A stretch of 64,000 nt of DNA from Nitrospinales bacterium. GTDB lineage: Bacteria > Nitrospinota > Nitrospinia > Nitrospinales > VA-1. Of this stretch, positions 6,221 to 60,811 are shown piece after piece. The DNA lies in NCBI GenBank assembly GCA_965262115.1, contig OZ253496.1, positions 544,001 through 608,000 of the forward strand, given 5' to 3'. The translations under genes and the position numbers were made by a program. Positions within the stretch are counted from its first letter, which is position 1; every line of letters begins with the position of its first letter. Under the pieces are notes generated by a model. It saw nothing but the letters and a program-made list of their open reading frames with translations. It searched no databases and was not told the origin of the DNA.

Positions 6221-6259
6221 TACCCCTCCGGGGCAAGAAAGCAATGGTTAAATATCACT
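6221..6259 (-). mobile_element. 39-bp mini-element, copy A
   Basis: AGTGATATTTAACCATTGCTTTCTTGCCCCGGAGGGGTA. Removal restores ATGCTTCGACA-AGCTCAGCATGACA. Confidence 0.75.
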
Positions 6260-6316
6260 AGCTCAGCATGACAAGAAAAAGTACTTTTGTCATTCTGAGG
6301 AGCAACATGAGGAAGA

Positions 6317-6355
6317 CGTGATATTTTTCCTTAGCCTTCGTGCCCCAACGGGGTA
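6317..6355 (+). mobile_element. 39-bp mini-element, copy B
   Basis: CGTGATATTTTTCCTTAGCCTTCGTGCCCCAACGGGGTA. Removal restores TGTCATTCTGAGGAGC...GAAGA-ATCC. Confidence 0.75.
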
Positions 6356-6529
6356 ATCCAAGGTTATGCAAAGCTCTCCTTTTAAATTAAACAAATCTCA
6401 TTAAGTATTTTTAATTTCGAATTAATGGGCCTTTAACTTTCAGGTTTTATTATTATCCCAACAGCATTAATTATCAAAACCCGTGTTGTCACGGTTTCAA
6501 AAATTCAATCGAGTTGGAGGATTTCCATC

Positions 6530-7672
6530 ATGACTCAAAAATTAAAGTTCCCAATCGCCATTGTCCTGTTCACTCTGATGGTCCTTCCCCTTTCTTATGG
6601 AATGGGGACTCCGGTTTTTTCCACTGCCGATTCCGCATTTGGCCTTAGCACCAAAGCCAATCCTGTAGGCACTAACTTGATTGTGGAAATCGCAAAAAAG
6701 AAGAATCCTGCTGTCGTATTCGTCACATCCAAAACTAAAATTCAACCGGCAAAAGGAAATGGACCCTTCGGACAGTTCTCTCCGCCATCCAGAGGCAGAC
6801 CTTTTACACCTCCACCCGCACCGGGGAACGGCACCGGAACGGGATTTATCATTGACCATGAAGGGCATATTCTGACCAATAACCATGTTGTGGAAGGTGC
6901 CGACATCATAAAAGTGACCCTGCAAAACGAAAAGGAATATGAAGCCCGGCTTGTCGGATCAGACCCCAAGACCGACATTGCACTGATAAAAATCATCCAG
7001 AAAAAGGGAGAACATACATCATTTCCATTTTTGACCATGGGCGATTCAAAACAATTGGAAGTGGGAGAATGGGTGGTCGCTATTGGCAACCCGTTCGGCC
7101 TGTCCCATACCGTGACCACAGGCGTGGTCAGCGCTAAGGGTAGAAACATTGGTGCCGGTCCCTATGATGAGTTCATCCAGACGGATGCTTCGATCAATCC
7201 CGGCAACAGCGGTGGGCCGTTACTGAACATGAACGGAGATGTCATAGGCATCAACACTGCGATTTTTTCCGGCAGTGGCGGAAACGTGGGCATTGGTTTT
7301 GCCCTGCCTATCAATATGGCCAAAGGCATTCTTGACGATTTGAAACAGAAAGGCAAAGTCACGCGCGGCTGGTTGGGTGTCATGATTCAGAGAATCACGC
7401 CTGAGTTGCAAGAATCTTTCAAGCTCAAAAATCCAATGGGCACTCTGGTCAATGATATCGTTCCCAACGGCCCTGCCGATCGCGGTGGCATGAAGCGCGG
7501 CGATGTCATCACCCGGTTTGACGGCGTTGAAATCGCCTCGATGGAAACACTGCCGAAGCAGGTCGCATCAATCACACCGGGAAAATCCGTGAAGGTCGAA
7601 GTGATCCGCGAAGGCCAGGCAAAGACGCTTGAAATAAAGATTGAACCAATGAAGGAAGAAAAGCCAGCTTGA
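6530..7672 (+). CDS. Do/DegP-HtrA family periplasmic serine protease with one PDZ domain
   Basis: Signal peptide, ILTNNHVV, DIALIK, IQTDASINPGNSGGPL, C-terminal PDZ. Confidence 0.93.
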   Translation: MTQKLKFPIAIVLFTLMVLPLSYGMGTPVFSTADSAFGLSTKANPVGTNLIVEIAKKKNPAVVFVTSKTKIQPAKGNGPFGQFSPPSRGRPFTPPPAPGNGTGTGFIIDHEGHILTNNHVVEGADIIKVTLQNEKEYEARLVGSDPKTDIALIKIIQKKGEHTSFPFLTMGDSKQLEVGEWVVAIGNPFGLSHTVTTGVVSAKGRNIGAGPYDEFIQTDASINPGNSGGPLLNMNGDVIGINTAIFSGSGGNVGIGFALPINMAKGILDDLKQKGKVTRGWLGVMIQRITPELQESFKLKNPMGTLVNDIVPNGPADRGGMKRGDVITRFDGVEIASMETLPKQVASITPGKSVKVEVIREGQAKTLEIKIEPMKEEKPA

Positions 7673-7700
7673 TCCCCTGGCCTGCAAGGGCCAACCTCCG

Positions 7701-7747
7701 GAAGGGGGACTGTTTTGTCAAGGGCAGTCCCCTTTCTAACTTTTTTC
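7701..7747 (+). terminator. Intrinsic terminator after the protease gene
   Basis: GAAGGGGGACTG...CAGTCCCCTTTC stem followed by a T-rich tract. Confidence 0.7.
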
Positions 7748-7942
7748 AAAATAAATTATTTCAGGAACTCGCTGTGGGGAAGCTGAGTTTTGTCTTTCAA
7801 AGATTAAATTAAAAATTCAAACCGATGGGGTGGTGTCCGTCACCTTTCTTTCCCTTTAGGTTCTATGCCTTTGACAACTGGAGGCAATGAAGCCTTAAGG
7901 GTGGCAAGCCTATCTTGCCAATTTTAGAGATGGAGGTGTGCT

Positions 7943-8047
7943 ATGGGCTGTAAACAAGTCAAACGCACCGTTCGGACTACAAGGAAACCTGGACCAAAAA
8001 CTGTTCCGGTTAAACCGCATACTCGGTCAAAACCAAAGCAGTGCTAG
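7943..8047 (+). CDS. Unannotated 34-aa highly basic small protein
   Basis: GGAGGTG SD just upstream of the ATG. Reads MGCKQVKRTVRTTRKPGPKTVPVKPHTRSKPKQC-TAG. Confidence 0.6.
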   Translation: MGCKQVKRTVRTTRKPGPKTVPVKPHTRSKPKQC

Positions 8048-8110
8048 GCTAAAAAAGTAGAACCTGAACACCGACGGTCATCATCCCTTTATATTATTTA
8101 GAGAAAGATT

Positions 8111-9598
8111 TTACTTTAGAAATTCACTGTGAGGAAGTTGTGTCTCCCCCATAAGGTGAAGGTCTACTGATCTCGCGGCTTCACGGCCTTCAGCAATGGC
8201 CCAGACCACCAGCGACTGCCCCCGGGTCATATCCCCTGCGACAAAAACTCCATCCACGCTGGTCATTTTATTATCATCACAGGCTACGTTTCCACGCCCG
8301 TCCAGATCCATCCCCAGTTCTACCAGCATGCCTTCATGAATGGGATGAACAAAGCCCATGGCCAGCAGAACCAGCTCGACTTCCAATTCAAACTCAGATC
8401 CAGGTACTTCCCGCATTTGCGGACGGCCCGTTTTAGGATCGGGATCGCCAAATTCTATCTTTACACCATGAATTTTGGAAACCTTGCCGTCCTCGCCGGA
8501 AAACTTTTTAGTCGATACACAAAATTCCGTAATCTTTTTTTTTCCTTCACGCTCATTCGCTTCTGCATGGGAAGAAGAAACCCGAAATATTTTTGGCCAT
8601 TGTGGCCAAGGGTTGTTATCCGTTCTTTCCTGAGGAGGCTCGGGTAAAAGTTCAAACTGATAGACGTTTTTTGCGCCTTGCCTGAGTGAGGTTCCCAGGC
8701 AATCCGAACCGGTATCCCCACCACCGATGATCAAAATATTTTTATCTTTGGCCGTAATAGAAATTTCTTCAGGGATGGTATCTCCCTCATTACGTTTATT
8801 CTGTTGCGGGAGAAAGTCCATGGCAAAATGAATACCATCAAGATCGCGTCCTTCCACAGGAATATCGCGAGGTTTCTGCGAACCGCCGCAAAGAACCACC
8901 GCGTCAAACTCATTTTTTAATTCGTTGGCCGATTTATTGACCCCTACATTGATACCGGTCTTAAAAATTACACCGGATTCTTCCATCACCTTTATGCGGC
9001 GTTTAACAATTTTCTTATCCAGTTTAAAGTTAGGGATGCCATACATCAGCAGTCCGCCGACACGATCATCTTTTTCAAAAACGGTGACCTCATGGCCCAC
9101 CCCATTAAGCTGATCGGCACAAGCCAGCCCTGCGGGCCCCGACCCCACTACCGCTATTTTTTTTCCTGTCCGGGACTCGGGTTTGCGGGGCTTGATAAAC
9201 CCCATCTCAAACCCCTTTTCCGCAATCATCTCCTCGATTTTACAAATCGTAACCGCCGGTTCAGTGATACCCAGCACACAGGCCCCCTCGCAGGGAGCCG
9301 GACAAACACGCCCGGTGAATTCGGGGAAGTTATTGGTCTTCTGCATCAGTTCCACCGCCTCCCGGTACCGGCCTCGATATACCATATCGTTCCAGTCGGG
9401 AATCAAGTTTCCCAGCGGACACCCGGCTTCACTCTGGCAGAACGGAACTCCACAGTCCATACAGCGAGCTCCCTGCTCTTTATATTTTTCTTCCGGAAAA
9501 GGAGCGTAACACTCCTGCTGATCCTTGAGCCTTTCCTCAACCGGCCGGCCTGACGGTGTCTCCCGCTCATATTCCATGAATCCTTTTATCGCACCCAT
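8111..9598 (-). CDS. gltD: Glutamate synthase small subunit
   Basis: RCMDCGVPFC, NNFPEFTGRVCPAPCE, GSGPAGL, GQSLVVWAI. Confidence 0.97.
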   Translation of the reverse strand: MGAIKGFMEYERETPSGRPVEERLKDQQECYAPFPEEKYKEQGARCMDCGVPFCQSEAGCPLGNLIPDWNDMVYRGRYREAVELMQKTNNFPEFTGRVCPAPCEGACVLGITEPAVTICKIEEMIAEKGFEMGFIKPRKPESRTGKKIAVVGSGPAGLACADQLNGVGHEVTVFEKDDRVGGLLMYGIPNFKLDKKIVKRRIKVMEESGVIFKTGINVGVNKSANELKNEFDAVVLCGGSQKPRDIPVEGRDLDGIHFAMDFLPQQNKRNEGDTIPEEISITAKDKNILIIGGGDTGSDCLGTSLRQGAKNVYQFELLPEPPQERTDNNPWPQWPKIFRVSSSHAEANEREGKKKITEFCVSTKKFSGEDGKVSKIHGVKIEFGDPDPKTGRPQMREVPGSEFELEVELVLLAMGFVHPIHEGMLVELGMDLDGRGNVACDDNKMTSVDGVFVAGDMTRGQSLVVWAIAEGREAARSVDLHLMGETQLPHSEFLK

Positions 9599-9626
9599 TT
9601 ACGCGTTCTATATCCTTTCATTGCCT

Positions 9627-12600
9627 TCAGGCAACCAGCACTTCATCTTTTCTTTTACGTTCTTCCAAAACCCGACGGTAATCGGTTGGATAAACTTTGA
9701 CAAATTTTGGCAGGGTCTCCTCCCACTCATCAAGCACCCTTTTGGCAACACTGCTTTGTGTGCTATGAAAGTGTTCCTCAATCAATGCCTTTAGTTGTTG
9801 AACATCTTCGGGTTCTTCAACGGGAAGCAGATCAACAATGCTTTGATTGCAATGGATGGGGAACGAATTATCCCGATCCAGAACATACGCCAGCCCCCCA
9901 CTCATTCCCGCGGCAAAGTTTCTACCTGTGGAACCTAGAACCACAACGACTCCTCCTGTCATGTACTCGCAGCCATGGTCCCCTACCCCTTCTATCACTG
10001 CCTGGGCTCCACTGTTGCGCACCGCAAACCGCTCTCCCCCAACTCCTCGGAAAAATGCTTTGCCGGAAACGGCACCGTAGAGAACTGTGTTTCCTATTAA
10101 AATATTTTCTTCCGGAACAAGGGTGGAGTCCTTTGGCGGATAAATAATTAATCTGCCGCCAGACAAACCTTTCCCGACATAGTCATTGGCATCGCCGGCA
10201 AGACCAAAGGTCACTCCCGGCGCAAGAAAAGCCCCGAAGCTCTGACCCGCAGAGCCCGTAAAACCGAATTGGATCGTATCGGCTGGCAGCCCTTCTTCCC
10301 CGTGCAATTTAGAAATACGATAACTGAGCATCGCCCCGGTAGCCCGGTCCGTGTTAAGAATTGGGAGATCGCCATAAATCTGGGTTTTCTTTTCAAGGGC
10401 TAGCTGGCTCATTTCTATCAGCTTATGGTCCAGTGCATTGTCCAGATCTCCACTCAAATCCTGTGTGCAGATATTTCTCAACGCCACCTTTTCATCAACC
10501 TCGGGCTTAAATAAAATTTTACTCACATCCAGTCCACTTGCTTTCCAGTGGCCGACCGCTTCTTCTCCTTCGAGCAGCTCTACTTTGCCAATCAGATCAT
10601 TGAATTTTCTAATACCTAATTGCGCCATGATTTCCCTGACTTCTTCCGCAATGAAGCGAAAGAAATTGACGACATATTCTGCCTTGGCGTCAAACTTTTT
10701 CCTGAGGTCCGGGTTTTGTGTGGCAATCCCCACCGAACAGGTATTGAGATGACATTTTCTCATCAAAATGCAACCCATAGTAATAAGGGCTGTGGTGGAG
10801 AACCCAAATTCATCCGCGCCAAGGATTCCGCCGATCACAACATCACGTCCTGTTTTGAGTTGCCCGTCCACCTGAACGCGGATGCGCCCTCTGAGATCGT
10901 TGAGTATAAGAATCTGCTGTGTTTCAGAGAGCCCCAGTTCCCAGGGAAGCCCAGCGTGTTTGATAGAGGTCTGAGGCGAAGCTCCGGTTCCACCATCGTG
11001 TCCGGCGATCAGTACTCCCTCCGCACGCGCTTTGGAAACTCCCGCCGCAATAGTACCCACCCCCGCTTCCGCAACCAATTTCACACTCACCCTGGCATCA
11101 GGGTTGGCATTATGAAGATCAAAAATCAATTGTTGCAGATCTTCTATGGAGTAAATATCATGGTGGGGCGGAGGAGAAATCAAAGCTACACCCGGAGTAG
11201 AACTCCGGATTTTAGAGATGTACTCGCTAACCTTATGCCCTGGCAATTGCCCTCCTTCACCGGGTTTTGCGCCCTGGGCAATCTTGATTTGCATTTCATC
11301 GGCATTGGCCAGGTAATAACTGTTCACCCCGAATCGTCCTGAGGCAACTTGCTTGATTTTACTGCGACGGTCATCCCCGTTCACATCCAAGGTATAACGG
11401 GCCGAATCCTCGCCGCCTTCACCGGTATTACTTTTACCACCCAGCCTGTTCATAGCAATCGCCAGTGTCTCATGGGCTTCGCGGGAAATCGAACCAATAG
11501 ACATGGCACCGGTACAAAAACGTTTGGTGATCTCTTCTACAGGCTCCACCTCTTCAATGGGTATCGGCGTGGTCTCTTTAAAATTAAAAAGTCCCCTTAA
11601 AGTACACTGTCGAGTGCTTTCTTTATCGGCATGCTGGGAAAACTTTTTGAAGGTCGCATAATCATTGGAACGGGTGGCGTGTTGCAACAAGCCGATAGCA
11701 TGCGGGTTGAGCATATGTTTTTCTTCACCGCGGCGCCAATGGTAATCACCACCAAGATCCAGTTGCGAGAAAAGTTCATTACTGTAAGCCCTTTTATGCC
11801 TTGCCAGAGCCTCCTTAGCCAGGACATCAAGATTCGCTCCGCTCACTCTGGAAGGGGTACCGGTAAAAAAACGTTCGATCACATCTTCGTTTAATCCAAC
11901 GGCTTCAAAAATCTGGGCACCACGGTAGCTCTGGATCGTGGAGATTCCCATTTTTGCAATGATTTTGAACAGACCCTTTCTTGTTGCCTTGATAAAGTTA
12001 TCGACCGCTTTGTCCATGTCCAGTTCTTCGACATACACCGCCTCGCTTGCCATCTGCGCTACCGTTTCATAAGCAAGATATGGATAAATAGCACCCGCAC
12101 CATAGCCAATCAACAGGGCGAAGTGCATCATCTCCCGAGCTTCACCTGTTTCTACAGCCAGCCCTACACGAGTACGAGTCCTCTCACGCAAAAGGTGATG
12201 GTGCACCCCGGCGGTAGCCAGAAGACTGGGCAAAGCAGCTTGATCAGCATCGATTCCTTTATCAGATAGAACTAGAATGGTGGCACCTTCTTCGATAGCT
12301 TGCGAAGCTTTCTGACATAACGCATCCAAAGCCCGTTCCATACCCTTTTCTCCTTCAGAGACAGGAAACAAGGTTGAAAGTACAACGGTTTTGAAATATT
12401 CCTTATCGAGTTTGCGGATTTTCTCCATTTCTATCCCAGTAAGAATGGGATGCTCGACTTTTAACTTGCGGCAATGTTCAGGACTCTCATCCAGAAGGTT
12501 TCGTTCTTTTCCAAGTGTCACTTCCATAGACATAACAAGTTCTTCTCGAATAGAATCGATAGCCGGATTGGTCACTTGTGCAAAGAGTTGTTTAAAATAA

Positions 12601-14147
12601 TAGAACAACAGTTGTGGCCTTTGCGACAAAATCGCAAGCGGTGTGTCGTTACCCATCGATCCGGTAGCTTCCTGTGAGATTCCAATCATGGGAGCCATGA
12701 TAAACTTGATATCCTCGACGGTATATCCAAACGCGGTCTGACGGGTCAAAAGGGAATCATAATCCGGCTCGAACTTGTAATCTGTCTCAGGCAAATCCTT
12801 GAGGTCAACCTGATTTTCTGCCACCCATTTTTTATAGGGTTTTTGCGTTGTGATTTTTGCTTTCAATTCTTCATCAGAAATGATGCGACCTTCATTAATG
12901 TCGATGAGAAACATTTTTCCTGGCTGCAACCTTCCTTTGTAAACAATATTGGCTTCATCCACCGGAAGGACCCCCACTTCCGAAGCCATGATGACCAGCC
13001 CGTCTTTGGTCACATAATAACGGGACGGCCGCAAGCCATTTCGGTCTAGCACCGCACCACAGGTTTCCCCATCGGTGAAAGCAATGGAGGCAGGACCATC
13101 CCAGGGTTCCATCATGGAAGCGTGAAATTCATAAAATCCGCGCTTGTCTTCGTTCATCGTCTCGTGTCCGCTCCACGGCTCGGGAATCATCATCATCATG
13201 GAATGGGCTAAAGACCGGCCGGTCAGGAACAACATCTCCAATGCCTGGTCAAAATCCGCCGAATCACTGCCACCCGGAGCAATGACAGGAAGGATCATAT
13301 TGATGTCTTTAAATAAAGGCGATCCAAACATCGACTCACGGGCACGCATCCAGTTCTGGTTTCCCCGAACCGTATTGATTTCTCCATTGTGTGCGATGTA
13401 ACGGAAAGGTTGAGATCGTCCCCAGGAGGGAAAGGTATTGGTACTGTATCGGGAATGGGCTAACGCCAAAGCTGAAGTCATATTTGGGTCTTTAAGATCC
13501 AGATAATAGGTCTCCAATTGCGGAGCCATCAGTTGTCCTTTGTAAATGAGGGTCTTGCTGGAAAGACTGCATGCGTAAAAGTTTTCGTTATTGTCATTGA
13601 GTCCGGCCCGACGCACTCCCCACGCAGTACGTTTGCGAACACAATAAAGCCTTCTCTCAAAAACCAACTGGTCTGACACATCCGCTCCCGCACCGACAAA
13701 AATCTGCTTGATCACCGGCTCGACAGAACGCGCCGTTTTCCCAATCGTTGTGTTGTCGGCCGGAACATCCCGCCAACCGAGAAGCTCAAGGCCTTCCATC
13801 ACAACCGCACGCTCCATGATTTCCTGGCCCTGTTTGGTATCCTCGCCGGTAGGAAGAAAAATATTACCCACTGCATAACGCCCCGCCTCGGGCAGCTTGA
13901 TCGCTGCTTTTTCACATTGTTCCTGAAAAAACTTGTGGGGAATCTGGATGAGAATCCCAGCACCGTCTCCCGTAGCCGAATCAGAACCGCAGGCCCCGCG
14001 ATGTTCCAGTTTTTTGAGGATTCCCAGTCCCTGGGTAATGATTTCATGGGACTTCTCCCCCTTCATATTCATGACAAACCCCACCCCACAACTGTCTTTT
14101 TCTAAGGCGGGATCACAGAGACCCTGTTTTTTTGGAAAAGCGTACAT
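9627..14147 (-). CDS. gltB: Glutamate synthase large subunit
   Basis: DSCGVGF N-terminal Cys, HSRYSTNT, EPWDGPA, QGAKPGEGGQLPG, CILMRKCHLNTC. Confidence 0.98.
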   Translation of the reverse strand: MYAFPKKQGLCDPALEKDSCGVGFVMNMKGEKSHEIITQGLGILKKLEHRGACGSDSATGDGAGILIQIPHKFFQEQCEKAAIKLPEAGRYAVGNIFLPTGEDTKQGQEIMERAVVMEGLELLGWRDVPADNTTIGKTARSVEPVIKQIFVGAGADVSDQLVFERRLYCVRKRTAWGVRRAGLNDNNENFYACSLSSKTLIYKGQLMAPQLETYYLDLKDPNMTSALALAHSRYSTNTFPSWGRSQPFRYIAHNGEINTVRGNQNWMRARESMFGSPLFKDINMILPVIAPGGSDSADFDQALEMLFLTGRSLAHSMMMMIPEPWSGHETMNEDKRGFYEFHASMMEPWDGPASIAFTDGETCGAVLDRNGLRPSRYYVTKDGLVIMASEVGVLPVDEANIVYKGRLQPGKMFLIDINEGRIISDEELKAKITTQKPYKKWVAENQVDLKDLPETDYKFEPDYDSLLTRQTAFGYTVEDIKFIMAPMIGISQEATGSMGNDTPLAILSQRPQLLFYYFKQLFAQVTNPAIDSIREELVMSMEVTLGKERNLLDESPEHCRKLKVEHPILTGIEMEKIRKLDKEYFKTVVLSTLFPVSEGEKGMERALDALCQKASQAIEEGATILVLSDKGIDADQAALPSLLATAGVHHHLLRERTRTRVGLAVETGEAREMMHFALLIGYGAGAIYPYLAYETVAQMASEAVYVEELDMDKAVDNFIKATRKGLFKIIAKMGISTIQSYRGAQIFEAVGLNEDVIERFFTGTPSRVSGANLDVLAKEALARHKRAYSNELFSQLDLGGDYHWRRGEEKHMLNPHAIGLLQHATRSNDYATFKKFSQHADKESTRQCTLRGLFNFKETTPIPIEEVEPVEEITKRFCTGAMSIGSISREAHETLAIAMNRLGGKSNTGEGGEDSARYTLDVNGDDRRSKIKQVASGRFGVNSYYLANADEMQIKIAQGAKPGEGGQLPGHKVSEYISKIRSSTPGVALISPPPHHDIYSIEDLQQLIFDLHNANPDARVSVKLVAEAGVGTIAAGVSKARAEGVLIAGHDGGTGASPQTSIKHAGLPWELGLSETQQILILNDLRGRIRVQVDGQLKTGRDVVIGGILGADEFGFSTTALITMGCILMRKCHLNTCSVGIATQNPDLRKKFDAKAEYVVNFFRFIAEEVREIMAQLGIRKFNDLIGKVELLEGEEAVGHWKASGLDVSKILFKPEVDEKVALRNICTQDLSGDLDNALDHKLIEMSQLALEKKTQIYGDLPILNTDRATGAMLSYRISKLHGEEGLPADTIQFGFTGSAGQSFGAFLAPGVTFGLAGDANDYVGKGLSGGRLIIYPPKDSTLVPEENILIGNTVLYGAVSGKAFFRGVGGERFAVRNSGAQAVIEGVGDHGCEYMTGGVVVVLGSTGRNFAAGMSGGLAYVLDRDNSFPIHCNQSIVDLLPVEEPEDVQQLKALIEEHFHSTQSSVAKRVLDEWEETLPKFVKVYPTDYRRVLEERKRKDEVLVA

Positions 14148-14236
14148 ATTCTATTTAACTCATTGAATTTAAAAAATGTTTAATTCCCCCCAAACATCGA
14201 AAATTCAAAGATTTTCAATGAGGAATGGGTATAAAG

Positions 14237-14253
14237 AGCAAGAGTCGTGCCTG
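14237..14253 (-). promoter_or_regulatory. Sigma54 (-24/-12) promoter for gltBD
   Basis: Minus strand CAGGCACGACTCTTGCT matches TGGCACG-N4-TTGC with exact GG-N10-GC spacing, about 90 bp upstream of gltB. Confidence 0.75.
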
Positions 14254-14741
14254 AGGAAACCCCTTGATATTAAGAGGTTTAAAAGAAATATCCCAAAATT
14301 AGAGTAATTAATATACACAATTAAGCGTATATTTTATATAACTGTTGTAAAATTTTTTGTTTGTGGTGTAAAGTCTTAAGCTTTTACTACCCGGCACCCA
14401 AACCTCAGAGGATTTTTCACCGCCATTATAATTATAATTGAAAACTCCGATAAAGTGGCGGATTTCCTTCATACTGGCCGTAAAAGGAGGGTTCAGGCCT
14501 TTTTCGATCCGCAGAAATCGCAGTTTAATTAACTGTTTTCATTTCTCAAATTGGCGTTATAATGAGCAAGTTTCCTTTTTCCACCCGGATCACAAAGTAC
14601 CCTTTTTAAGCCGTGTTAAGGTAACCTTCCCCGGGTTGGAATTTTTGATTCCTTTAAATTTTAAGAACGGAAGCACCGTTTTCCTTCATATATATACTGG
14701 CAAATCGTTGTTTATTTTTTATCTATTGAATTGGGGCCGCA

Positions 14742-15381
14742 ATGATCGTTGATGAAATAATGACCCGCAAGGTCATCACCATTAAATCCAGGGACACCCT
14801 TTATTAAGGCGCAGGAATTGATGGTTAAGAATTCCATCCGCCATTTACCGGTCACCCAAAAAAAAGAACTTGAAGGGATCATCACGGAAAGCGATATTCG
14901 CGGAGCTTTCATTCAAAATAATATAGATTCATCAAGGGTAACAATTCTCGACCCGAAGGAAATGAAAGTTGAGGATTTCATGACCCGGAATCCTCAAACT
15001 GTAGGACCGGACACCAATGTAGAAGATGCGGCCCTCTTGATTTACAAAAATAAGATTGGGTCACTTCCGGTTTTAGATGGCGATAAGTTGGTGGGCATCA
15101 TCTCCATTCTCGATATGTTGGGATTGTTCATAGATTTAATGGGCATTATCCATTCAAGTTCCAGAGTGGATGTCATCATGGACAAGGGTCCCAAAAACTT
15201 TGAATCTGTTTCAAAAATCATCCACGACCAGGGTTTAAACATCATCAGTGTTGGTATGGCCCCCTATGCCAAAAATAAAAAGAAACAGGTCTATTTCTTT
15301 CGACTGGACCTATGCGAGACAGCCCCCCTGGTCAAAAAGATCGAAAAGACCGGGTTCAAGGTACTAAACGCCATCGACTGA
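14742..15381 (+). pseudogene. CBS-domain/ACT (AcuB-like) protein, frameshifted near 14804
   Basis: ATG at 14742 gives MIVDEIMTRKVITIKSRDTLY-TAA. Deleting one T joins it to KAQELMVKNSIRHLPV... Confidence 0.75.
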
Positions 15382-15446
15382 GGTGCTCGCCGCAGGGACA
15401 ACTAGCAAGAACTCCTCGAACTAAAACCAGCTCTTTGCTCCCCAGA

Positions 15447-15525
15447 CGCGATATTTTTCTCAAGCCTTTACCCTTGCAGGGCATGAAGGTAAATGAAGAA
15501 ATATCACACGTGCCCCGGAGGGGTA
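15447..15525 (+). mobile_element. Mini-element (copy E-out) containing a nested inverted copy (E-in, 15469-15508)
   Basis: CGCGATATTTTTCTCAAGCCTT[inner copy on minus strand: TGTGATATTTCTTCATTTACCTTCATGCCCTGCAAGGGTA]CGTGCCCCGGAGGGGTA. Confidence 0.8.
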
Positions 15526-15570
15526 AATAGTTTTTGCTCGCTAGCCCCACTAGTAATCTCCGCAGAAGCA

Positions 15571-15644
15571 GGCAAGAGCCACTTAAGCCGAGATAATATT
15601 TTTTAACCAGAGCAAGTTATTGCTCAATAGCCCCACGCTTAGTG
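15571..15644 (+). repeat. Degenerate ~75-85 bp intergenic repeat; a further decayed tandem copy spans about 15400-15555
   Basis: GGCAAG..AAGCCGAG..TTGCT..CCACGC.TAGTG shared with 4903-4976. Confidence 0.6.
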
Positions 15645-15666
15645 GGTGAAAGGAAATTTTTCAGCC

Positions 15667-17229: not shown

Positions 17230-17237
17230 TCAGCCAT

Positions 17238-17272
17238 AGTCCCCTTCCAGTTTTCCGGAGGGGATTTTCTTT
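17238..17272 (+). terminator. Putative intrinsic terminator after leuA
   Basis: AGTCCCCTTCC...GGAGGGGATT stem followed by TTCTTT. Confidence 0.55.
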
Positions 17273-17297
17273 TAAAAATTTTTGACTAGAGGATGCC

Positions 17298-18023: not shown

Positions 18024-18100
18024 AAACTATTGTATTCTTAGTAGCTTCATGAGAAACACCCATGTTTTTATGAAGTTTAGATGAATTGGAGAACTCGGTC

Positions 18101-36761: not shown

Positions 36762-36869
36762 AAGATTATTTTACCATACACCAAGGCGGAGCGAGAAAAG
36801 GACGGTAGCAAGAGGTTTCAACCGAGATAACCTGTTGTTTGTCAGATAGGTCAATGCAAGCTGGCAGCA

Positions 36870-36909
36870 TATTATGACCCATCATCAGTCTTCATGCTCC
36901 GAAGGGGTA
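36870..36909 (+). mobile_element. Mini-element, copy D (more diverged at its 5' end)
   Basis: TATTATGACCCATCATCAGTCTTCATGCTCCGAAGGGGTA aligns with copy C. Confidence 0.6.
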
Positions 36910-36994
36910 CGCCTGAGGGGGGGGGAATAATTTCCTTCCAAACCTGGCCGGTAGGATATAATACAAGGCCGTTTATTTTTTTACCGGAAGCTTC

Positions 36995-50842: not shown

Positions 50843-50847
50843 AACTT

Positions 50848-51735
50848 ATGAATACCGTTGTTGAAGAAAAATCCCAAAATCCTTCTGCGAAGGAACCACC
50901 CAAGTTTGTGATCGGGGTACGAATCCTCGAGCAGATTAAATCGGGACAATATAATCCGGCTGACTTAAAGCTGAAGGTCGGGATGACGGTGATGGTCAAC
51001 ACTCACCAGGGTTTGAAAATGGGGGTGGTGGCCTCAAACAAAGTCCTTAATTTTAAAAAGAACAGTCAGGAGAGCCGGGTATTGCGCATCGCCAATGACA
51101 ACGATTTCCAGGCGGAAAATCGGCGGCATCAAGTCGAGGGAAAAGCCAAAACCCTGTGCGGCGACAAAATTATAGAACTGAAACTGCCGATGAACCTTAG
51201 CCGGGTGGTGCACCAGCCGCATATGAACAAAACAATTTTTTTCTTCACCGCCGAAGGTCGGGTGGACTTTCGCCAATTGATCCGCGACCTGGCTTCCAAC
51301 CTGCGCCACCGCATTGAGATGAAACAAGTGGGAGTGCGTGACGAGGCCAAGGTCATAGGAGGCTATGGGGTGTGTGGAGAAACACTTTGCTGTTCCACCT
51401 GGCTTCCTGACTTCACACCCGTGACCATAAAAATGGCCAAAAATCAGGGGATGGCGCTCAACCCCAGCAAAATTTCCGGCGTATGTGGACGGCTCATGTG
51501 TTGCCTGCAATATGAGCACGACAACTACAAAGCCCTCATCAAAAACCTGCCCCGGGTAAACAGCCATATCCAAACTCCGGACGGCCCTGGTCGAGTGCTT
51601 AAAAATGAAATTCTGGAACAGCGTGTCGTGGTTCTGCTGGAAGATGAAAGTATAATGACCTATCCTATCGGTGAACTACCAAAACCTCAAGATTCTCAGA
51701 AACCTCAAAGCTCTCAAATTCCTCAAAAACCCTGA
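50848..51735 (+). CDS. ricT: PSP1-domain RicT/YaaT-family protein
   Basis: FTAEGRVDFR, G.CG..LCCS, KISGVCGRLMCCLQYE. Confidence 0.88.
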   Translation: MNTVVEEKSQNPSAKEPPKFVIGVRILEQIKSGQYNPADLKLKVGMTVMVNTHQGLKMGVVASNKVLNFKKNSQESRVLRIANDNDFQAENRRHQVEGKAKTLCGDKIIELKLPMNLSRVVHQPHMNKTIFFFTAEGRVDFRQLIRDLASNLRHRIEMKQVGVRDEAKVIGGYGVCGETLCCSTWLPDFTPVTIKMAKNQGMALNPSKISGVCGRLMCCLQYEHDNYKALIKNLPRVNSHIQTPDGPGRVLKNEILEQRVVVLLEDESIMTYPIGELPKPQDSQKPQSSQIPQKP

Positions 51736-51752
51736 AGCTGAAAAACCATTCC

Positions 51753-53669: not shown

Positions 53670-55057
53670 TTATTGACACCCACGCACATATTGATGTTGC
53701 CGATTTCGACGAAGATCGCGAAGCGGTGATCGAACGCGCCCGCGAAAACGGTGTTCAATACATGCTCAATATCGGTTGCGATGTCGAAAGCAGTTACCGC
53801 TCCATGGAACTGTCGGAGCAGTATGATTTCATTTACGCCACTGCTGGCGTCCACCCGCACGATGTTAAATCCATCGATGCAGACACCTACGCCCACTTGC
53901 GACAACTGTTGCTTCACCCTAAAGTCATCGCTTTAGGCGAGATCGGACTCGACTTCTTCAAAAACTATTCCCCGCAGGATCAACAGCGCACCCATTTCCG
54001 CAAACAGATCCAGCTTGCCCGAGAAATGAACAAGCCCATCATCATACACAGCCGGGACGCCAAAGAAGATATCATCGCTATCCTCTCGGAGTTTTACCCG
54101 AAGGACCCGACCGCGCTTTCGGGAATCTTTCACTGCTTTTCCGGAGATCAGGAACTGGCCGACAAAGCCTTGGAAATGGGATTTTATATCTCCTTTTCCG
54201 GTTCGGTAACTTTTAAAAAAGCCGAAGTCCTACGGGAGGTGGCAAAGACCGTTCCGGCAGACCGGCTGTTCGCCGAAACCGATTGCCCTTACCTGACTCC
54301 CGTTCCTCATCGAGGCAAACGCAACGAACCGGCCTACGTGAACTTCACCGCCGAAAAACTTGCGGAAATTCGCGGACTGAAAATTGAAGATGTACAACGC
54401 ACCATGGCTCTCAACTTCTTCGAACTGTTCGGAATTGGGGAAAACGCCAAAACCGGAACGGTGTCTTATAAAATCCGCAACTCGCTTTACTTGAACCTGA
54501 CGCAACGGTGCACAGCGGATTGCGTGTTCTGCACCCGTCTGACCAAGCCAGTCGTCCAAGGTCATAATCTGGCACTGGATCGGGAACCAACCGCGAAAGA
54601 AGTCTGGGATTCCATCGACGATGTTAAAAATTATGACGAGATCGTTTTCTGCGGGTTTGGAGAGCCAACATTGAGACTAGATGTTATCAAGGAGGTGGCG
54701 CAAAAAATAAAAGACGCCGGAGGGCGTGTACGGCTCAACACTAATGGTCACGGCAACGTCATCAACAAGCGCAATATTCTTCCTGAACTGTCAGGGCTGA
54801 TCGATGAAGTTTCCGTGAGCCTCAACACCGATACTTCTGAGGCCTACGACGAAATCTGCCAGCCTCTACCCATGTTCCGAAACGGCATCTACGACAAGAT
54901 TAAAGAATTCATCGCCGAAGCAAAAAAGCATATTCCCGAAGTGCAGGCCACCATCGTCACGCACCAGAAGAATGTGAACGAAGCCCAATGCGAAACCATC
55001 GTCAATGAGGAATTCGGAGTAAAATACCGACCTCGAAGATACAATATAGTAGGTTAA
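53666..55057 (+). CDS. tatD: TatD-family hydrolase fused to a TatD-associated radical SAM domain
   Basis: IDTHAH, GEIGLD, HCFSG, ETDCP, then LYLNLT.RCTADCVFC and FCGFGEP. Confidence 0.88.
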   Translation: MIIDTHAHIDVADFDEDREAVIERARENGVQYMLNIGCDVESSYRSMELSEQYDFIYATAGVHPHDVKSIDADTYAHLRQLLLHPKVIALGEIGLDFFKNYSPQDQQRTHFRKQIQLAREMNKPIIIHSRDAKEDIIAILSEFYPKDPTALSGIFHCFSGDQELADKALEMGFYISFSGSVTFKKAEVLREVAKTVPADRLFAETDCPYLTPVPHRGKRNEPAYVNFTAEKLAEIRGLKIEDVQRTMALNFFELFGIGENAKTGTVSYKIRNSLYLNLTQRCTADCVFCTRLTKPVVQGHNLALDREPTAKEVWDSIDDVKNYDEIVFCGFGEPTLRLDVIKEVAQKIKDAGGRVRLNTNGHGNVINKRNILPELSGLIDEVSVSLNTDTSEAYDEICQPLPMFRNGIYDKIKEFIAEAKKHIPEVQATIVTHQKNVNEAQCETIVNEEFGVKYRPRRYNIVG

Positions 55058-55120
55058 GCGGCGAACCGCCGCAGGTAAATAGCAATAACTTATCTTGTGT
55101 ACAAGGAAATATCTCGGCTG

Positions 55121-55561
55121 ATGGAGAACGCTGAAAGTCCTACAATCAATCAAAATACTCACCCCCCGCGAGGCGGGGTTGGTTGGGTTTAGCTGGGTGC
55201 GGGTTTGGCCGGGTTGAGCGTTATGCTCGGCGCATTTGGTGCGCATTCTTTAAAAGCCCAACTGACTGAAAAAAAACTCGCCACCTTTCACACTGCAACT
55301 GACTACCTCGGCTACCATGCTCTGGCATTGATCGCCATTGGCATCCTGATGCTGGTTCTTGATAACGAGATTCGCGCAAAACTGAAACGGTCGGCTCGCT
55401 GGATCAGCAGCGGCATTGTCTTATTCAGTGGCAGCCTTTATGGGCTCGCCTTTGAAGGCCCCCGTTTTTTGGGACCCCTCACTCCTCTGGGTGGACTCTG
55501 CTTCATGATCGGCTGGTTCACGTTGGCTTACAGTCTTTTTAAATATTCCCGTACTAAATAA
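55121..55561 (+). pseudogene. DUF423 membrane protein with in-frame TAG at 55190-55192
   Basis: ATG at 55121 reads ...GWV*LGAGLAGLSVMLGAFGAHSLK...FSGSLY...LTPLGG. Confidence 0.65.
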
Positions 55562-55591
55562 AAAAGGCTCGGGTTCACCCCGAGCCTTTTT
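55560..55591. terminator. Bidirectional intrinsic terminator between convergent genes
   Basis: AAAAAAGGCTCGGG-TTCAC-CCCGAGCCTTTTT. Confidence 0.85.
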
Positions 55592-55619
55592 AACAACTTT
55601 ACCTATATAAAAAGAAATG

Positions 55620-56087
55620 TTAATGGCAACTACCCATACCCCTTTTCCCTAGGTATTTTTGGTGGTAATCTTCCGCGATGTAATATTCCGGAGCCAGGGT
55701 GATTTCCGTAACGATGGCTGACCCGAAGCGCCCGGATTGATCGGCCTTCTCTTTGGATGCTTTGGCCGATGCTTCCTGTTCCGGTGAATGATAAAAAATA
55801 GCCGAACGGTATTGAGTGCCTCTGTCCGGTCCCTGCCTATTTAAAGTCGTCGGATCATGACACCCCCAAAACACATCGAGCAGTGCGTCAAAAGAAACAC
55901 TGGACGGGTCATACTCCACTTGCACCACTTCGGCGTGCATGGTCTGCCCGGTGCAAACATCTTCATAGGTGGGCTTCAAAGTTGTCCCACCGGTATAGCC
56001 CACCGAAGTAGCTTTAACGCCTTTGGTTTTTTGAAAAGCAAGTTCCACTCCCCAAAAACATCCGGCACCAAAAGTAGCAACTGCCAT
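55620..56087 (-). CDS. msrA: Peptide methionine (S)-sulfoxide reductase
   Basis: GCFWG, HAEVV, RQGPDRGTQYRS, AEDYHQKY. Confidence 0.96.
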   Translation of the reverse strand: MAVATFGAGCFWGVELAFQKTKGVKATSVGYTGGTTLKPTYEDVCTGQTMHAEVVQVEYDPSSVSFDALLDVFWGCHDPTTLNRQGPDRGTQYRSAIFYHSPEQEASAKASKEKADQSGRFGSAIVTEITLAPEYYIAEDYHQKYLGKRGMGSCH

Positions 56088-56096
56088 ATCGTCCTC

Positions 56097-56375
56097 CTAA
56101 ATGCGGCTGGTGATTTCGATCAGGTGATACCCGAACGAAGTTTGAACGGGACCATGCACGGCTCCCACTTCTTCATTGAACACAACCGTGTCAAATTCCG
56201 TAACCATCTGGCCGGGACCGAAGGAACCGAGGCTGCCGCCCTCTTTTCCGGAAGGACATTCGGAATGCTCCTTAGCCATTTCGCCAAAGTCTGCTCCTTC
56301 CTCAATTTTCTTTTTCAAATCCTTACAGACTTCCTCAGATTTGACCAATATATGTCGAGATGTTGCCTGGGTCAT
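56097..56375 (-). CDS. ppiC: Parvulin peptidyl-prolyl isomerase
   Basis: RHILV, HSECPSG..GGSLG, QMV.EFD, FGYHLI. Confidence 0.93.
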   Translation of the reverse strand: MTQATSRHILVKSEEVCKDLKKKIEEGADFGEMAKEHSECPSGKEGGSLGSFGPGQMVTEFDTVVFNEEVGAVHGPVQTSFGYHLIEITSRI

Positions 56376-56388
56376 AAAAACATCCTTT

Positions 56389-57204
56389 CTATTTTTGATT
56401 ATAAATTCTGTAATAATAGCCCAACAAAATCAGGACCATAAACGCTAAAGCTGTAAAATGCTGCATGTATTTCGCGGAATACCAAGTGGGAGAGAAACGC
56501 ACCGTGCCGTTAATCTCCCCGGAATAATGCTTCAACATTTCTCCGTATTCTATCATCAAGCGGACGGGAAAACGATCCTGTCCCTGATCTCCCCGCCGAA
56601 AAACACGGACTTCAAAATTCTTTTCTTCACCTCCGTACAGGGTAAAACCCATCGTTCCCGAAAAATCCTCGGTTTCTATGCCGGGAGGCAGTAAAAGCAT
56701 CATTCTTATATTTTTAAGCGATTGAGAACGGTTCTGAAGAAACACCTTCAAGATGGAGGAGTCCGAATCGGTCGCCGATTCCATACTTCCCTCCACTTTG
56801 GGCACCACAGGCTCCTTGAAAAAAAAGGAGTCTGTGGCCAGAACCGATTGTCGGGTCCCGCTATTCGGATGCGTCCAATATTCCACCATGGCAGTCAGGG
56901 GATACCGACCCACCCGCATGACAGGGGGATGTTTGTCATTTTCAAGTATGACGCTCTGCCCCGGATCCAGACGCATGATCTTCGACATCATTGACATCGA
57001 GTGGTGGAAATGGAACATCGGGTGGATATGATAAACCGGTTGGGAACCGGCATTCTTCAGAGTCAACGCCAGCTTTACGTTTCCGGCATCATCAACCTGA
57101 CTCTGAATGGAAACCTCCAGCGGCTGTGCATGGGCATATCTAATCGGCATCACCCCAGCTAAAACAGCAAGAAGGATTATCGAAAGCTTTAGATAATAGG
57201 CCAT
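56389..57204 (-). CDS. Hypothetical exported protein with C-terminal TM anchor
   Basis: Signal peptide (AHA-Q), beta-rich body, C-terminal hydrophobic helix. Confidence 0.7.
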   Translation of the reverse strand: MAYYLKLSIILLAVLAGVMPIRYAHAQPLEVSIQSQVDDAGNVKLALTLKNAGSQPVYHIHPMFHFHHSMSMMSKIMRLDPGQSVILENDKHPPVMRVGRYPLTAMVEYWTHPNSGTRQSVLATDSFFFKEPVVPKVEGSMESATDSDSSILKVFLQNRSQSLKNIRMMLLLPPGIETEDFSGTMGFTLYGGEEKNFEVRVFRRGDQGQDRFPVRLMIEYGEMLKHYSGEINGTVRFSPTWYSAKYMQHFTALAFMVLILLGYYYRIYNQK

Positions 57205-57306
57205 GGAATCTATTTTAGCATCGCAAGGACTCAATATAAACTCGGACTTAGCCTGCAAATATTGTTATCATCAGGATAACCGTCGAATAACATCAGGAGA
57301 ACTCTT

Positions 57307-58053
57307 ATGGATTTTCTATTGATCCCGTTAGTATTGCTCGCCCTGCTGGTTTTCAGCATGTTCAAGGTTTTGCGTGAATACGAAAGAGGAGTGATTTTTC
57401 TGTTCGGAAGATTCTGGAAAGTCAAAGGTCCGGGAATCATCATTGTCGTGCCTGGAGTCCAGAAAATGGTCAAGGTCAGCTTGCGCACCGTGGTCATGGA
57501 TGTTCCGCCTCAGGACATCATCACCAAGGACAATGTGACGGTAAAGGTCAACGCGGTGATTTATTTCCGTGTTGTCGATCCCCAAAAAGCCATTATCGAA
57601 GTAGAAGATTTTCTTTACGCAACTTCCCAACTCTCTCAAACGACTTTGCGAAGTATTTTGGGCCAGAGCTCGCTGGATGATCTGTTGTCCAATCGGGAAG
57701 AGATCAACGCCCATCTGCAACAAGTCATTGATGAGCAAACCGAGCCATGGGGAGTTAAAGTCGCCAATGTAGAAGTCAAAAATGTCGACCTGCCGCAAGA
57801 GATGCAACGTGCCCTGGCGAAACAGGCAGAAGCCGAGCGCGAGAGGCGGGCTAAAGTCATCAACGCCCAGGGTGAGTTTGAAGCGGCGCAGAAAACCTGT
57901 GATGCCGCAGACCTGATCGGCGCGCACCCCCCTGCCCTACAATTGCGCTTTTTTCAGACTTTGCTGGATCTTTCTTCAAATGAGGGGACGCATACTTATC
58001 TCCCCATTCCGCTTGAGCTGTTCGATTCCCTGCGCAATAAAGGGAAAGAGTGA
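57307..58053 (+). CDS. SPFH/band-7 (stomatin/slipin) protein
   Basis: [41 protein letters not shown]. Confidence 0.92.
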
Positions 58054-58628
58054 CAATAAAGCTTGAAGGAAACTGGGATAAAGGCTTTGCCTATGATGTC
58101 CACACGCTTGATAGCGTTTACTTAGGACCTGATCAATTTGGGCACGATCAATTTAAGAATACCCGAAGTGAAATGGGCAAATTGGTCTTTAGGCTTAAAT
58201 ATAAAAACGATAAATCCACCACCAATAAAATTGTTGATTTACTTGGCAAATACAAAGGTATTGAAAAATTTGATGCCATAATCCCCTCTACTTCCTCAAA
58301 GAAAGACAGGCCATACCAACCCGTTGATGAAATTGCCCTTGAGTTAGGAAAACGAATGGGTGTTAATGTCTTAATTGGGTTTCTTGAAAAAAGTGACGAA
58401 AGCAAAGAACTTAAGGATATTACAGGCGTGGATGAGCGCATTCAGGAGCTTAAAAAGGTCACCTTCATTTCTTCCGAAAAAGATATTTCTGGCCAAAAAG
58501 TGCTATTATTAGATGATTTGTTTAGATCGGGAGCCACCCTGTCGGTATCGACCGACCTACTATACAAACAAGCCAAAGTAAGTAACGTGAGTGTCCTTAC
58601 AATGACGAAAACCAAGAGCAACCGATGA
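58050..58628 (+). CDS. ComF-like phosphoribosyltransferase-fold protein
   Basis: [17 protein letters not shown]-loop [18 protein letters not shown] overlap with the SPFH stop. Confidence 0.8.
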
Positions 58629-59188
58629 CAACGGTATTTTTATCGGGTTCGCGGCAGTTGAACCGACTAAATGACACGATAAAAGCTCGGATCAATAATA
58701 TGGTCGAGCAAAGTTTCCTCGTTCTTTTGGGTGACGCAAACGGCGCGGACAAAGCAATGCAGCAATACCTCGCCGATACTCATTACTCGAATGTTAAGGT
58801 TTTTTGTTCAGGGGAAACTTGCCGGAACAATATTGGCGATTGGGCTGTCACGCAGGTCTCCGTAGGTAGCAAGCTGAAAGGGCGCGATTTCTATACTGCG
58901 AAAGACAAAAAAATGTCCTCAAAAGCAGATTACGGACTTGTTTTATGGGATGGCAAAAGTGCAGGCGCAATCAACAATGTATTTGAGCTTCTAAAACATG
59001 GCAAACAAGTTGTTGTATATTTCTCGCCTGAAAAAGAGTTTCACAATATTTCGCATCTGAATGATGCAAAAGCTTTGCTTAAAAAATGCGACCCTACCAC
59101 CCTTAACTTAATTAGCAAAAAAATCCGGTTGCCTAGCGCTATTGCGGACATCCAAAATGCCGCACAGGGAAACCTGACACTATCTTAA
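58625..59188 (+). CDS. SLOG-superfamily (DprA/YpsA-like) protein
   Basis: VFLSGSR, GDANGAD, KD..M...ADYGLVLWDGKSAG; ATGA overlap with the PRTase stop. Confidence 0.65.
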   Translation: MTTVFLSGSRQLNRLNDTIKARINNMVEQSFLVLLGDANGADKAMQQYLADTHYSNVKVFCSGETCRNNIGDWAVTQVSVGSKLKGRDFYTAKDKKMSSKADYGLVLWDGKSAGAINNVFELLKHGKQVVVYFSPEKEFHNISHLNDAKALLKKCDPTTLNLISKKIRLPSAIADIQNAAQGNLTLS

Positions 59189-59245
59189 TTTGGGTTAGTT
59201 GCGGTAGCAACCATTTACATGTGCAGTCGACCCCTCGGCTAAAGC

Positions 59246-59551
59246 CTATTTACCATTAAAACGGGTATTGATATATACTGCGACCCCCTCAATGGGAACC
59301 TCTACCGAGGAGTTACCGCTTCTAACATAGAACTTTTTCGATTTAACCCCGCCCTTATCCGCAACCTCCAAATACTGCGGCTCCAGTCCTTTTTTAATCT
59401 GTATGTGACAAATTTCATTTTCATCGACTTCGGGAAAACTAACAGTAATATTATTAGTAGCAAAGTTTACCCCAAAACTTGTCTTTATCAAATCCCTTAG
59501 GTGAAGTTCAAACTCGTCCTTGCTCCCATCCAAACTAGCATAGTCATAGTC
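59246..59551 (-). pseudogene. C-terminal fragment of an AlbA_2/Schlafen-like domain protein, truncated at the IS3 left end
   Basis: Open frame from the IS boundary: DYDYASLDGSKDEFELHL...FYVRSGNSS...YINTRF. Confidence 0.65.
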
Positions 59552-59616
59552 TGATCTTCCCCTGAATTGGTGGACACATAGAAAAGTGTGGATAATACAC
59601 TTTTGGAGGTGTTTTT

Positions 59617-60811
59617 ATGGGAACCAAACGCAGGAGTTTCAGTAAAGAATTCAAGTTAGAAGCGGTTCGATTGGTTATTGAAGTAGGCGATAGCATTGCC
59701 CGGGTGTCCCGGGATCTGGGAATCCGTTCTGCCCTTCTGGGTCGCTGGAAACAGGAGTATGAGGAGGATCAGGGGAATGCGTTTCCCGGCAAAGGACAGC
59801 TTAAGCCGGGAGATGAGTTGCAGCAGTTGCGGCGAGAAAACGCTCGCCTTCGTATGGAGCGGGACATATTAAAAAAGGCGGCAGTTATCTTTGTGATGTC
59901 CTCTTCATTTGTCTTCATGCCACGAAGGGGTACTCGAAGGGTTCCCAATGAGATATCGGTTTATACGGGATCATCGAGAAGCATTTCCGGTAAGCCCGAT
60001 GTGCCGGGTTCTGGAAGTGGGACGAAGTGGGTTCTATGCCTGGCTGAGCCGCCCCGAGAGCCTGAGGAGCCGTGAGAAGCAGCGATGGGTTGATGAGATC
60101 AAAACCGTTTATAAGAAGAGTCGCCAGACTTATGGCAGTCCCAGAATTCATGAGGACTTGAAAGACAAGGGATATGCCATTGGCAGGCATCGTATTGCCT
60201 GTCTTATGCGCGAGCATGGAATCGTTGCCAAGCACAAAAGAAAGTTCAGGGTGACAACCGATTCCAAACATAATCACCCGGTGGCAAAAAACAAACTGCA
60301 ACGGCGGTTTAATGTTGCTGAGCCCGGTCAATGCTGGGTTTCGGATATCACCTATATCCCGACTCAAGAGGGCTGGTTATACCTTGCGGTGACGCTGGAT
60401 TTATTCCACCGTAAAGTTATTGGTTGGGCCATGGATCGTTGGATAACCCGTTGGTTGGTAATGAGAGCTTTAAATATGGCAATGAAGAACGGCGGCATGA
60501 AACCGGGATTGATTCACCATTCTGACCGGGGGGTTCAATATGCCTGCAACGATTTTCAAGCCTTGCTCAATGTTCATGGGATAGAGTGCAGTATGAGCCG
60601 GAAGGGCGATTGCTGGGATAACGCCGTGGCGGAGAGTTTTTTCCATACTCTCAAAGTGGAACTCATTCATAACCGGAACTACAAAACCCGTCAGCAAGCA
60701 AAGAAGGATATTTTTGAATATATCGAAGTGTTTTATAATCGGCAACGCCGTCACTAATATCTCGGCTATCTCAGCCCTGCCGAATTCGAGAAACAGGCCT
60801 ATGCCTCTTAA
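59617..60811 (+). pseudogene. IS3 transposase orfA/orfB with a 41-bp insertion and premature TAA at 60755
   Basis: RRH*YLGYLSPAEFE where RRHS is expected; orfB displaced from the -1 frame by the insertion. Confidence 0.85.
59892..59932 (+). mobile_element. 41-bp mini-element, copy C, inserted in IS3 orfA
   Basis: TGTGATGTCCTCTTCATTTGTCTTCATGCCACGAAGGGGTA. Removal gives KKAAVIFSKGSQ-TGA overlapping the orfB ATG in the -1 frame. Confidence 0.8.

Follow-up and report, generated by a model that had tools for sequence, protein, structure and literature searches.

Six copies of a 39–41-nt repeat with one terminal hairpin lie in the window analysed here, a 64,000-nt stretch of a Nitrospinales genome (contig OZ253496.1, positions 544,001 to 608,000), and they belong to an element that is real, recently mobile and confined to one lineage. 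The reading that we favour is that the element moves as a single-stranded DNA circle through a trans-acting enzyme, and we place the probability of this at about 0.47. The positions and sequences of all six copies given in the original prediction, which was made from the window alone, were confirmed, including those of copy E-in, nested antisense in copy E-out.

Family size and a predicted end-joining base pair

In the source genome (G000; 2.68 Mb in one contig, 94% complete), of which the element makes up about 0.6%, a profile iterated from the six copies gave 367 matches at E ≤ 0.01, a number that rose to 415 with the cut-off at E ≤ 1; the same profile found no match at E ≤ 1 in the reversed G000 sequence. 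The sister genome G013 (a single contig of 2.86 Mb, 98% complete) gave 418 matches in the 2.0 Mb searched. Scanning the genome and its relatives recovered hundreds of further copies together with filled and empty orthologous sites. An exact pattern was present in 36 of the 120 genomes of the phylum, G000 included: besides G000 it was found in 34 of the 69 genomes of the same family (20/22, 6/6, 1/1, 1/11 and 6/17 in five genera) and in one other family in 1 of 21 genomes, and it was absent from control genomes. Within the family, genera g1, g15 and g16 and part of g20 count as carriers, and g2, g3, g12-g14, g17 and g18 as non-carriers. Six full copies were found in two phage contigs. Among the first 80 loci from a genome collection, 68 were titled Nitrospina, Nitrospinaceae, Nitrospinales or Nitrospinota; 10 of the 12 with other labels were read, and two of these contain the full element. 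Since the five such genomes that were checked hold only 1–2 matches each, matches outside Nitrospinota are likely binning errors or chance. Activity is judged to be recent because copy C sits in an IS3 element not found in G013 and because filled/empty differences separate G000 and G013. An Rfam search of the window returned tRNA only and no family matching the element, in line with the original view that it is not a named family, and no description of it was found in a literature search that fell short of most subscription papers and ISfinder.

The element consists of N1-G-T-G-A-T, a pyrimidine-rich spacer of 14–16 nt, T-T-C-x and the hairpin TGCCCC-GNA-GGGGTA, with a length of 39, 40 or 41 nt in 224 of a strict set of 236 G000 copies. 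In a de-duplicated set of 179 copies from many genomes, the loop is GNA in 169 and the loop-closing pair covaries, being Watson-Crick in 161 (C:G 120, G:C 29, T:A 10, A:T 2). A GNA triloop with its closing pair forms a stable hairpin of the DNA type, and it is this triloop, not a GNRA tetraloop, that is conserved. Covariation supports this one hairpin only, with a stem of 6 bp.

The hairpin and GNA loop of the originally proposed pattern are thus borne out, but its freely variable first base is not: N1 covaries with the internal base x, which lies just 5′ of the hairpin. The two are complementary in 219 of the 236 strict copies and form a Watson-Crick pair in 154 of the 179 de-duplicated ones (T:A 95, C:G 53, A:T 6). 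In a covariation test on 26 aligned sequences, none of 500 shuffles reached the observed score or the number of cells changed on both sides; kinship inflates this score, as the tool itself warns, and slid controls were far lower. When the 179 copies were folded with DNA parameters, the N1:x pair formed in 128 as circles and in 15 as linear sequence with flanks. N1 and x lie at opposite ends of the spacer, and their stacking on the hairpin requires that the first and last bases of the element be joined; it is mainly on this ground that a single-stranded circle is argued. On such modelling the inserted form would look like a circular permutation of an eight-pair hairpin, opened in its 3′ arm.

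A separate observation concerns copies nested in the spacer or hairpin of another copy, which genome-wide mostly have a G:C loop-closing pair and not C:G, as if the inner and outer stems had to differ.

Insertion sites, target motif and altered flanks

Empty alleles place the ends of the element at fixed positions. The E-out site is empty in the related genome G008, the site of copy C is empty and in frame in related IS3 elements of G016 and G069, the host repeat of copy A occurs in G000 in 21 empty and 41 filled instances, and G013 contains exact empty orthologues of G000 positions 1799168 and 2496717, the former providing the filled/empty contrast for a site of the E-in type. All of these restore the same ends, so that the boundary rule first put forward, with neither terminal inverted repeats (TIRs) nor a target-site duplication (TSD), is upheld. 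A host form related to the site of copy B was counted 48 times without an insert. In two of eight empty orthologues compared, the junction is off by a single base, possibly through the alignment. Within the first 0.8 Mb of G013, alignable orthologues were available for 38 of 270 G000 copies, and most of the 16 without the element also lack the whole host repeat. The unit of insertion in filled/empty pairs is the single copy and not an inverted doublet.

Hairpin repeats, of the CGTC type and others, serve as hosts for copies, as do IS3, phage contigs and other copies of the element, and tandem arrays also occur. Nested copies lie in sense orientation in the spacer and in the hairpin, or antisense as in E, and tandem copies run head to tail, up to five in a row, with the downstream copy starting with T at 58 of 58 junctions, which are not independent of one another. 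Most copies occupy gaps between genes; 28 of the 367 fall in called open reading frames, mostly IS3 orfA or doubtful frames. Orientation shows no bias with respect to transcription (95 sense and 96 antisense in co-directional gaps), and no "home" gene repeatedly flanked by copies was found across genomes.

The insertions had been thought to share no target motif; this did not hold. A loose motif, G-H-R-S-N^, precedes the element at 71 of 179 sites, as compared with 1–11 at six shifted offsets. Position −5 is G in 64% of sites and −4 is G in only 12%, −3 is a purine in 74%, and −2 is C or G in 83% and A in 1% (2/179). A role of the spacer as a programmable guide was not supported; over several hundred spacer-flank position pairs the best complementarity had a z of 3.6, within the expectation for multiple tests.

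Bases immediately upstream of the inserts are altered. Four or more empty homologues were available for 185 of 414 distinct filled sites. Of these filled sites, 8.1, 13.5 and 7.6% have at −5, −4 and −3, respectively, a base that is rare in the empty homologues, as compared with 3.4, 2.4 and 2.1% for the empties. These changes amount to 2–6 times background, with positions −2, −1 and +1 at background and +5 at 7.0% versus 3.9%. Among copies that interrupt another copy's hairpin, the host sequence is GAGCC 18 times and GCCCC six times, and GAGCC occurs in 0 of 232 uninterrupted hairpins. The same CC>AG change at −4/−3 is seen in an unrelated repeat, with copy D as the example in the window: its left flank is GGCAGCA, an altered form of the host GGCCCCA, and this host repeat occurs empty as GGCCCCACGCC 78 times, as GGCAGCACGCC once, and as GGCAGCA followed by TGT 13 times. 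Both CC>AG hosts are altered relative to empty G013 orthologues (G000 2442700 and 2081145), and most flank changes shift the sequence towards the target motif. Because the same double change is found in two unrelated hosts, a single old mutation is hard to accept as its source. It is reasonably probable that the target bases are edited at insertion.

Proposed movement, candidate enzymes and rival explanations

In the proposed mechanism, joining of the last A to N1 would extend the hairpin to eight pairs. The cut site would then lie within the 3′ arm, and both ends of the element would be set by a single hairpin. A transesterase acting on single strands would exchange the junction phosphodiester for the one that follows the target motif, the insert being fixed afterwards by replication. 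In part of the insertions a short heteroduplex or repair patch might rewrite −5 to −3 and spare −2 and −1, which is the least secure of these steps. A Y1 or Y2 HUH protein of a kind that Pfam detects is probably not involved; candidates are an enzyme of the host, such as its single type IA topoisomerase, and a protein not yet described. The full scheme, in which a host or undescribed enzyme handles a 40-nt single-stranded circle, reads the five-base target and rewrites two or three of the upstream target bases, is put forward tentatively and is the doubtful, more specific form of the circle reading.

Several points weigh against movement as a circle. The circle is inferred and none was observed, the data being assembled contigs. 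The N1:x pair adds an extension of only 2 bp, 25 of the 179 copies have no Watson-Crick pair there, and no mobilising enzyme was found among the families tested. Empty sites have no greater tendency to form hairpins than control DNA from between genes, and, unlike in lagging-strand transposition, copies are not biased in orientation with respect to replichore (68/76 and 114/109 on the arms defined by GC skew). In tandem arrays the upstream x often mismatches the downstream N1, and most tandems are therefore not rolling-circle multimers. With respect to the flanks, the altered sites are not independent, several being lineages that spread with their hosts; gene conversion is visible next to IS110 copies and between composite copies; no change is present at the IS3 site of copy C or in two orthologous pairs; and carry-over of donor flank, tried as a source of the changes, was not supported by the test.

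The search for the enzyme covered named candidate families at set thresholds and did not include a whole-proteome Pfam scan. Y2 transposases are absent from G000, G013, G007 and G019, with Y2 model matches in 4 of 70 family genomes and 0 of 14 controls. A screen of G000 frames for the HUH motif gave nothing convincing among 130, and the only trace of a reverse transcriptase in G000 is a broken stretch at about 50 kb, no intact gene being found. Neither was a long element with the same ends, enclosing an HUH, recombinase or reverse transcriptase gene, seen in G000: 69 lone 3′ halves were read, and nesting, a worn 5′ end or an inserted IS3 accounts for each that is a true end of the element, the remainder looking like chance matches. 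The contigs of two further sequencing runs contained no skip specific to element loci. A third tyrosine recombinase was rejected, being present in 45 of 70 family genomes, non-carriers among them, and absent from G013, G007 and G006; in G000 (L172, G000:C1:2164564-2165397) its frame ends before the region of the catalytic Tyr, and the product is possibly a non-catalytic DNA-binding protein. Cas1 (matches in 9/70 family genomes) and a REP-associated GIY-YIG protein (19/70 with the query used) were rejected as well, neither being present in genus g15. G000 has three different cas1 genes (G000:C1:768805, 2126375 and 2643996), and G013 and G007 each have at least three matches. Type IA topoisomerase is present as one copy in each of four carriers and in one non-carrier. 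Of the original interpretation, a very small, non-autonomous, fixed-end mobile element with a DNA-type hairpin stands, and the link to HUH enzymes is unsupported by gene content.

That link nevertheless has to be weighed, as peel-and-paste transposition by a Y1 HUH transposase (IS200/IS605 TnpA or RAYT-like), the gene of which would itself be mobile and have been lost from, or have only visited, the high-copy genomes. The hairpin end, the absence of a TSD and the 4-nt TTCx 5′ of the hairpin foot recall the guide/hairpin ends described in passages of PMC6006769 and PMC8266576, and Y1 genes are indeed sporadic, occurring in 16 of 70 family genomes and in 4 of 6 in genus g15. However, G000, G013 and G007, which are the best-assembled of the high-copy genomes, have no Y1 (PF01797), although insertion postdates the G000/G013 split, and in the family carriers and non-carriers (such as G076-G078) have it alike; a weak shared Y1 match was discarded as an unrelated 159-aa protein. 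Most Y1 genes of the family are bounded by inverted ends of their own, and of 25 Y1/Y2 loci not one has the element immediately beside it; at two a copy lies one gene away. With a single hairpin, no guide-target covariation and no strand bias in addition, we consider this route unlikely. Movement by way of an RNA copy, whether reverse-transcribed or used as a template for repair, would account for the asymmetric flank changes, as primed one-sided integration would alter the left flank only, and would suit the precise hairpin-defined 3′ end and the location of most copies between genes; it has reportedly been discussed for cyanobacterial repeats of a similar kind. Against it stand the broken reverse transcriptase, the lack of orientation bias to transcription, the fact that the conserved loop is a GNA triloop and not a GNRA tetraloop, and the donor flank carry-over that was not seen, which together make it rather improbable.

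The element might alternatively have no mobility of its own and spread passively, within mobile host repeats and by gene conversion, the flank changes being single old mutations copied along. At least 185 of the 414 distinct sites are in multicopy hosts, REP-A and IS3 copies have clearly multiplied with their insert, conversion tracts lie beside IS110 copies and subtypes are tied to host types. Yet the same ends, and the motif with them, recur at many unrelated sites, including the IS3 coding region and phage contigs; the same CC>AG change is found in two unrelated hosts; and near-identical elements occur in unrelated flanks, so that passive spread as the whole explanation is improbable. Mobilisation in trans by the bridge recombinase of the resident IS110 is largely refuted by distribution and is scarcely credible, its close relatives being confined to 4 of 70 family genomes and missing from G007, G019 and g15. 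All 26 IS110 copies of G000 do lie in the element hairpin, and IS110 circles form without a TSD and are reported as single-stranded for IS621 in 10.64898/2026.08.31.748434; but crossover is in the loop and not at the ends of the element, the predicted donor guide matches IS110's own junction, and no core dinucleotide is common to the two junctions of the element. Explanations other than these and the circle have a slender chance.

Y1 genes of about 325 aa at L018, L321 and L363-L377, sporadic in the family, form a group with inverted ends starting GGGGTCAAGTC and adjacent short tandem repeats.

Genomic setting and known systems

The copies in the window and the larger repeats that house some of them are listed in Table 1. 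The composite repeat around copies A and B is multicopy once the elements are removed.

Table 1. Element copies and host repeats, in window coordinates
Feature	Position	Strand	Description
Host composite repeat	6173..6379	.	inverted ends CTTTGCATAA ... TTATGCAAAG; houses A and B; outside the element proper
Copy A	6221..6259	-	39 nt; N1 is A and x is T; within CGTC-type REP-like hairpin
Copy B	6317..6355	+	39 nt; N1 is C and x is G; within another REP-like hairpin of the CGTC type, inserted at GAAGA^ATC
Copy E-out, 5′ part	15447..15468	+	site empty in G008, filled in G013
Copy E-in	15469..15508	-	40 nt; antisense, nested in E-out; loop-closing pair T:A
Copy E-out, 3′ part with hairpin	15509..15525	+	
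Copy D	36870..36909	+	40 nt, worn 5′ end; in third repeat family
Host IS3-family element	59552..60841	+	1290 bp including insert
Copy C	59892..59932	+	41 nt; within IS3 orfA, directly behind A6G frameshift site

The IS110 of G000 is about 1.19 kb long, and every copy is at one site in the loop of the element (e.g. L011, G000:C1:120376-121570). Its left end includes stretches matching both halves of the hairpin site and others matching its own junction, with core CT, as bridge-RNA guides aimed at the element hairpin would; this reading follows the IS621-type model in PMC11208160. A copy in G013 (L342) occupies the same site, and a relative in G076 (L341), where the element is missing, differs in its predicted guides and lies in another hairpin repeat, a difference that, as far as the sequences can tell, is a case of natural retargeting. 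The IS3 element has 18 left ends, with the insert in all 15 readable junctions, and seven 1290-bp copies are 99.7–100% alike; it has thus multiplied, insert included, to 15 or more nearly identical copies. As the 41 nt lie behind the frameshift site, the usual OrfAB fusion should be broken, and no intact helper was found. It is a matter of speculation that a +1 slip at CCC-CGA inside the insert restores OrfAB; the window copy reads CCA there.

Other small modules were noted in passing. A further family (the GGCCCCACGCC type with its 78 empty copies, and others ending CTAG or CCAG) is present at 15381-15646 and 36840-36930 of the window and genome-wide; modules of this type occupy gaps behind stop codons and differ between relatives. 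A contig of run X5, from a related population, carries an element-like insert of ~39 letters at window position 4943, where the window itself is empty. The region G000:C1:1-105000 has no element copies; it is AT-rich around 55 kb and includes simple tandem repeats in the assembly and the broken reverse transcriptase near 50 kb, which suggests foreign DNA joined to the contig.

At 39–41 nt the element compares with 21–27 nt for the small dispersed repeats (SDRs) of cyanobacteria. Like these, it is a very small non-coding module that inserts precisely into other repeats and into itself, with no enzyme known; unlike them, so far as is known, it is asymmetric with one terminal hairpin and has an end-joining pair, the G-H-R-S-N motif, altered target bases and a home in Nitrospinota. 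SDR1-8 of Nostoc and relatives were reportedly described by Elhai et al. in 2008. SDRs are presented in a passage of PMC4390886 as very small, precisely inserting repeats, with SDR5 as an example, and are mentioned in PMC3116915. Compared through such citing passages, the cyanobacterial SDRs are the closest known class, and the class of the element is not wholly unprecedented.

Repetitive extragenic palindromic (REP) sequences, including BIME and REPIN-RAYT (TnpA-REP) systems and CGTC-tagged REPs, resemble the element as hairpin repeats of 20–40 nt present in hundreds per genome, extragenic and targeted by IS110, the CGTC-tagged ones also in having no dedicated transposase, according to PMC3733652, PMC6006769, PMC8266576 and PMC3116915. 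The element differs from REP/RAYT in having TTCx and not GTAG/GTGG at the hairpin foot, no RAYT in the high-copy genomes and one half that is unpaired spacer, and from CGTC REPs in its ends (N-GTGAT and GGGTA, with no terminal CGTC/TGTC), its stem of 6 bp versus 8–9 bp, and its use of CGTC repeats as hosts. With IS200/IS605 and PATE, on the evidence of passages in PMC6006769 and 10.1101/2023.03.14.532601, it has in common the lack of TIR and TSD, a hairpin end, insertion 3′ of a short motif and, if the circle reading is correct, a single-stranded circle; it has, unlike them, a single hairpin where they have two, a 5-nt motif that is loose and shows no guide covariation, no TnpA, no replichore bias and a far smaller size. 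The element thus uses a DNA hairpin and leaves no duplication like the IS200/IS605 or REP systems, but does not behave as a member of either in their defining tests. The attC hairpin of integron cassettes is complete only in the circle, the inserted form being a circular permutation, and the inserted element is similar in this respect; unlike cassettes, it has no attC core boxes in the alignment, is far too short, carries no cargo and is accompanied by no intact IntI. A place in IS91/ISCR is at odds with the absence of Y2 transposases from G000, G013, G007 and G019, and one among non-autonomous IS110 elements with the lack of a core dinucleotide at both junctions and of a co-occurring IS110 with matching donor guides. 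The IS621-type IS110s that target REPs (as in PMC11208160; ISPpu10) match the resident IS110, of which the target is the element hairpin.

How very small repeats without a transposase, such as SDRs and CGTC REPs, spread is an open question, and the element makes it testable through its exact ends, the predicted 40-nt circle junction, the target motif, the −5 to −3 footprint and the presence of carriers and non-carriers in one family. If the full scheme with target rewriting is true, this would be transposition without a transposase of any known family, and possibly the process behind SDRs, CGTC REPs and other enzyme-less micro-repeats. In the organism itself, likely a marine nitrite oxidiser, the element reshapes intergenic DNA and is so abundant that a bridge-RNA IS110 has come to use it as a target.

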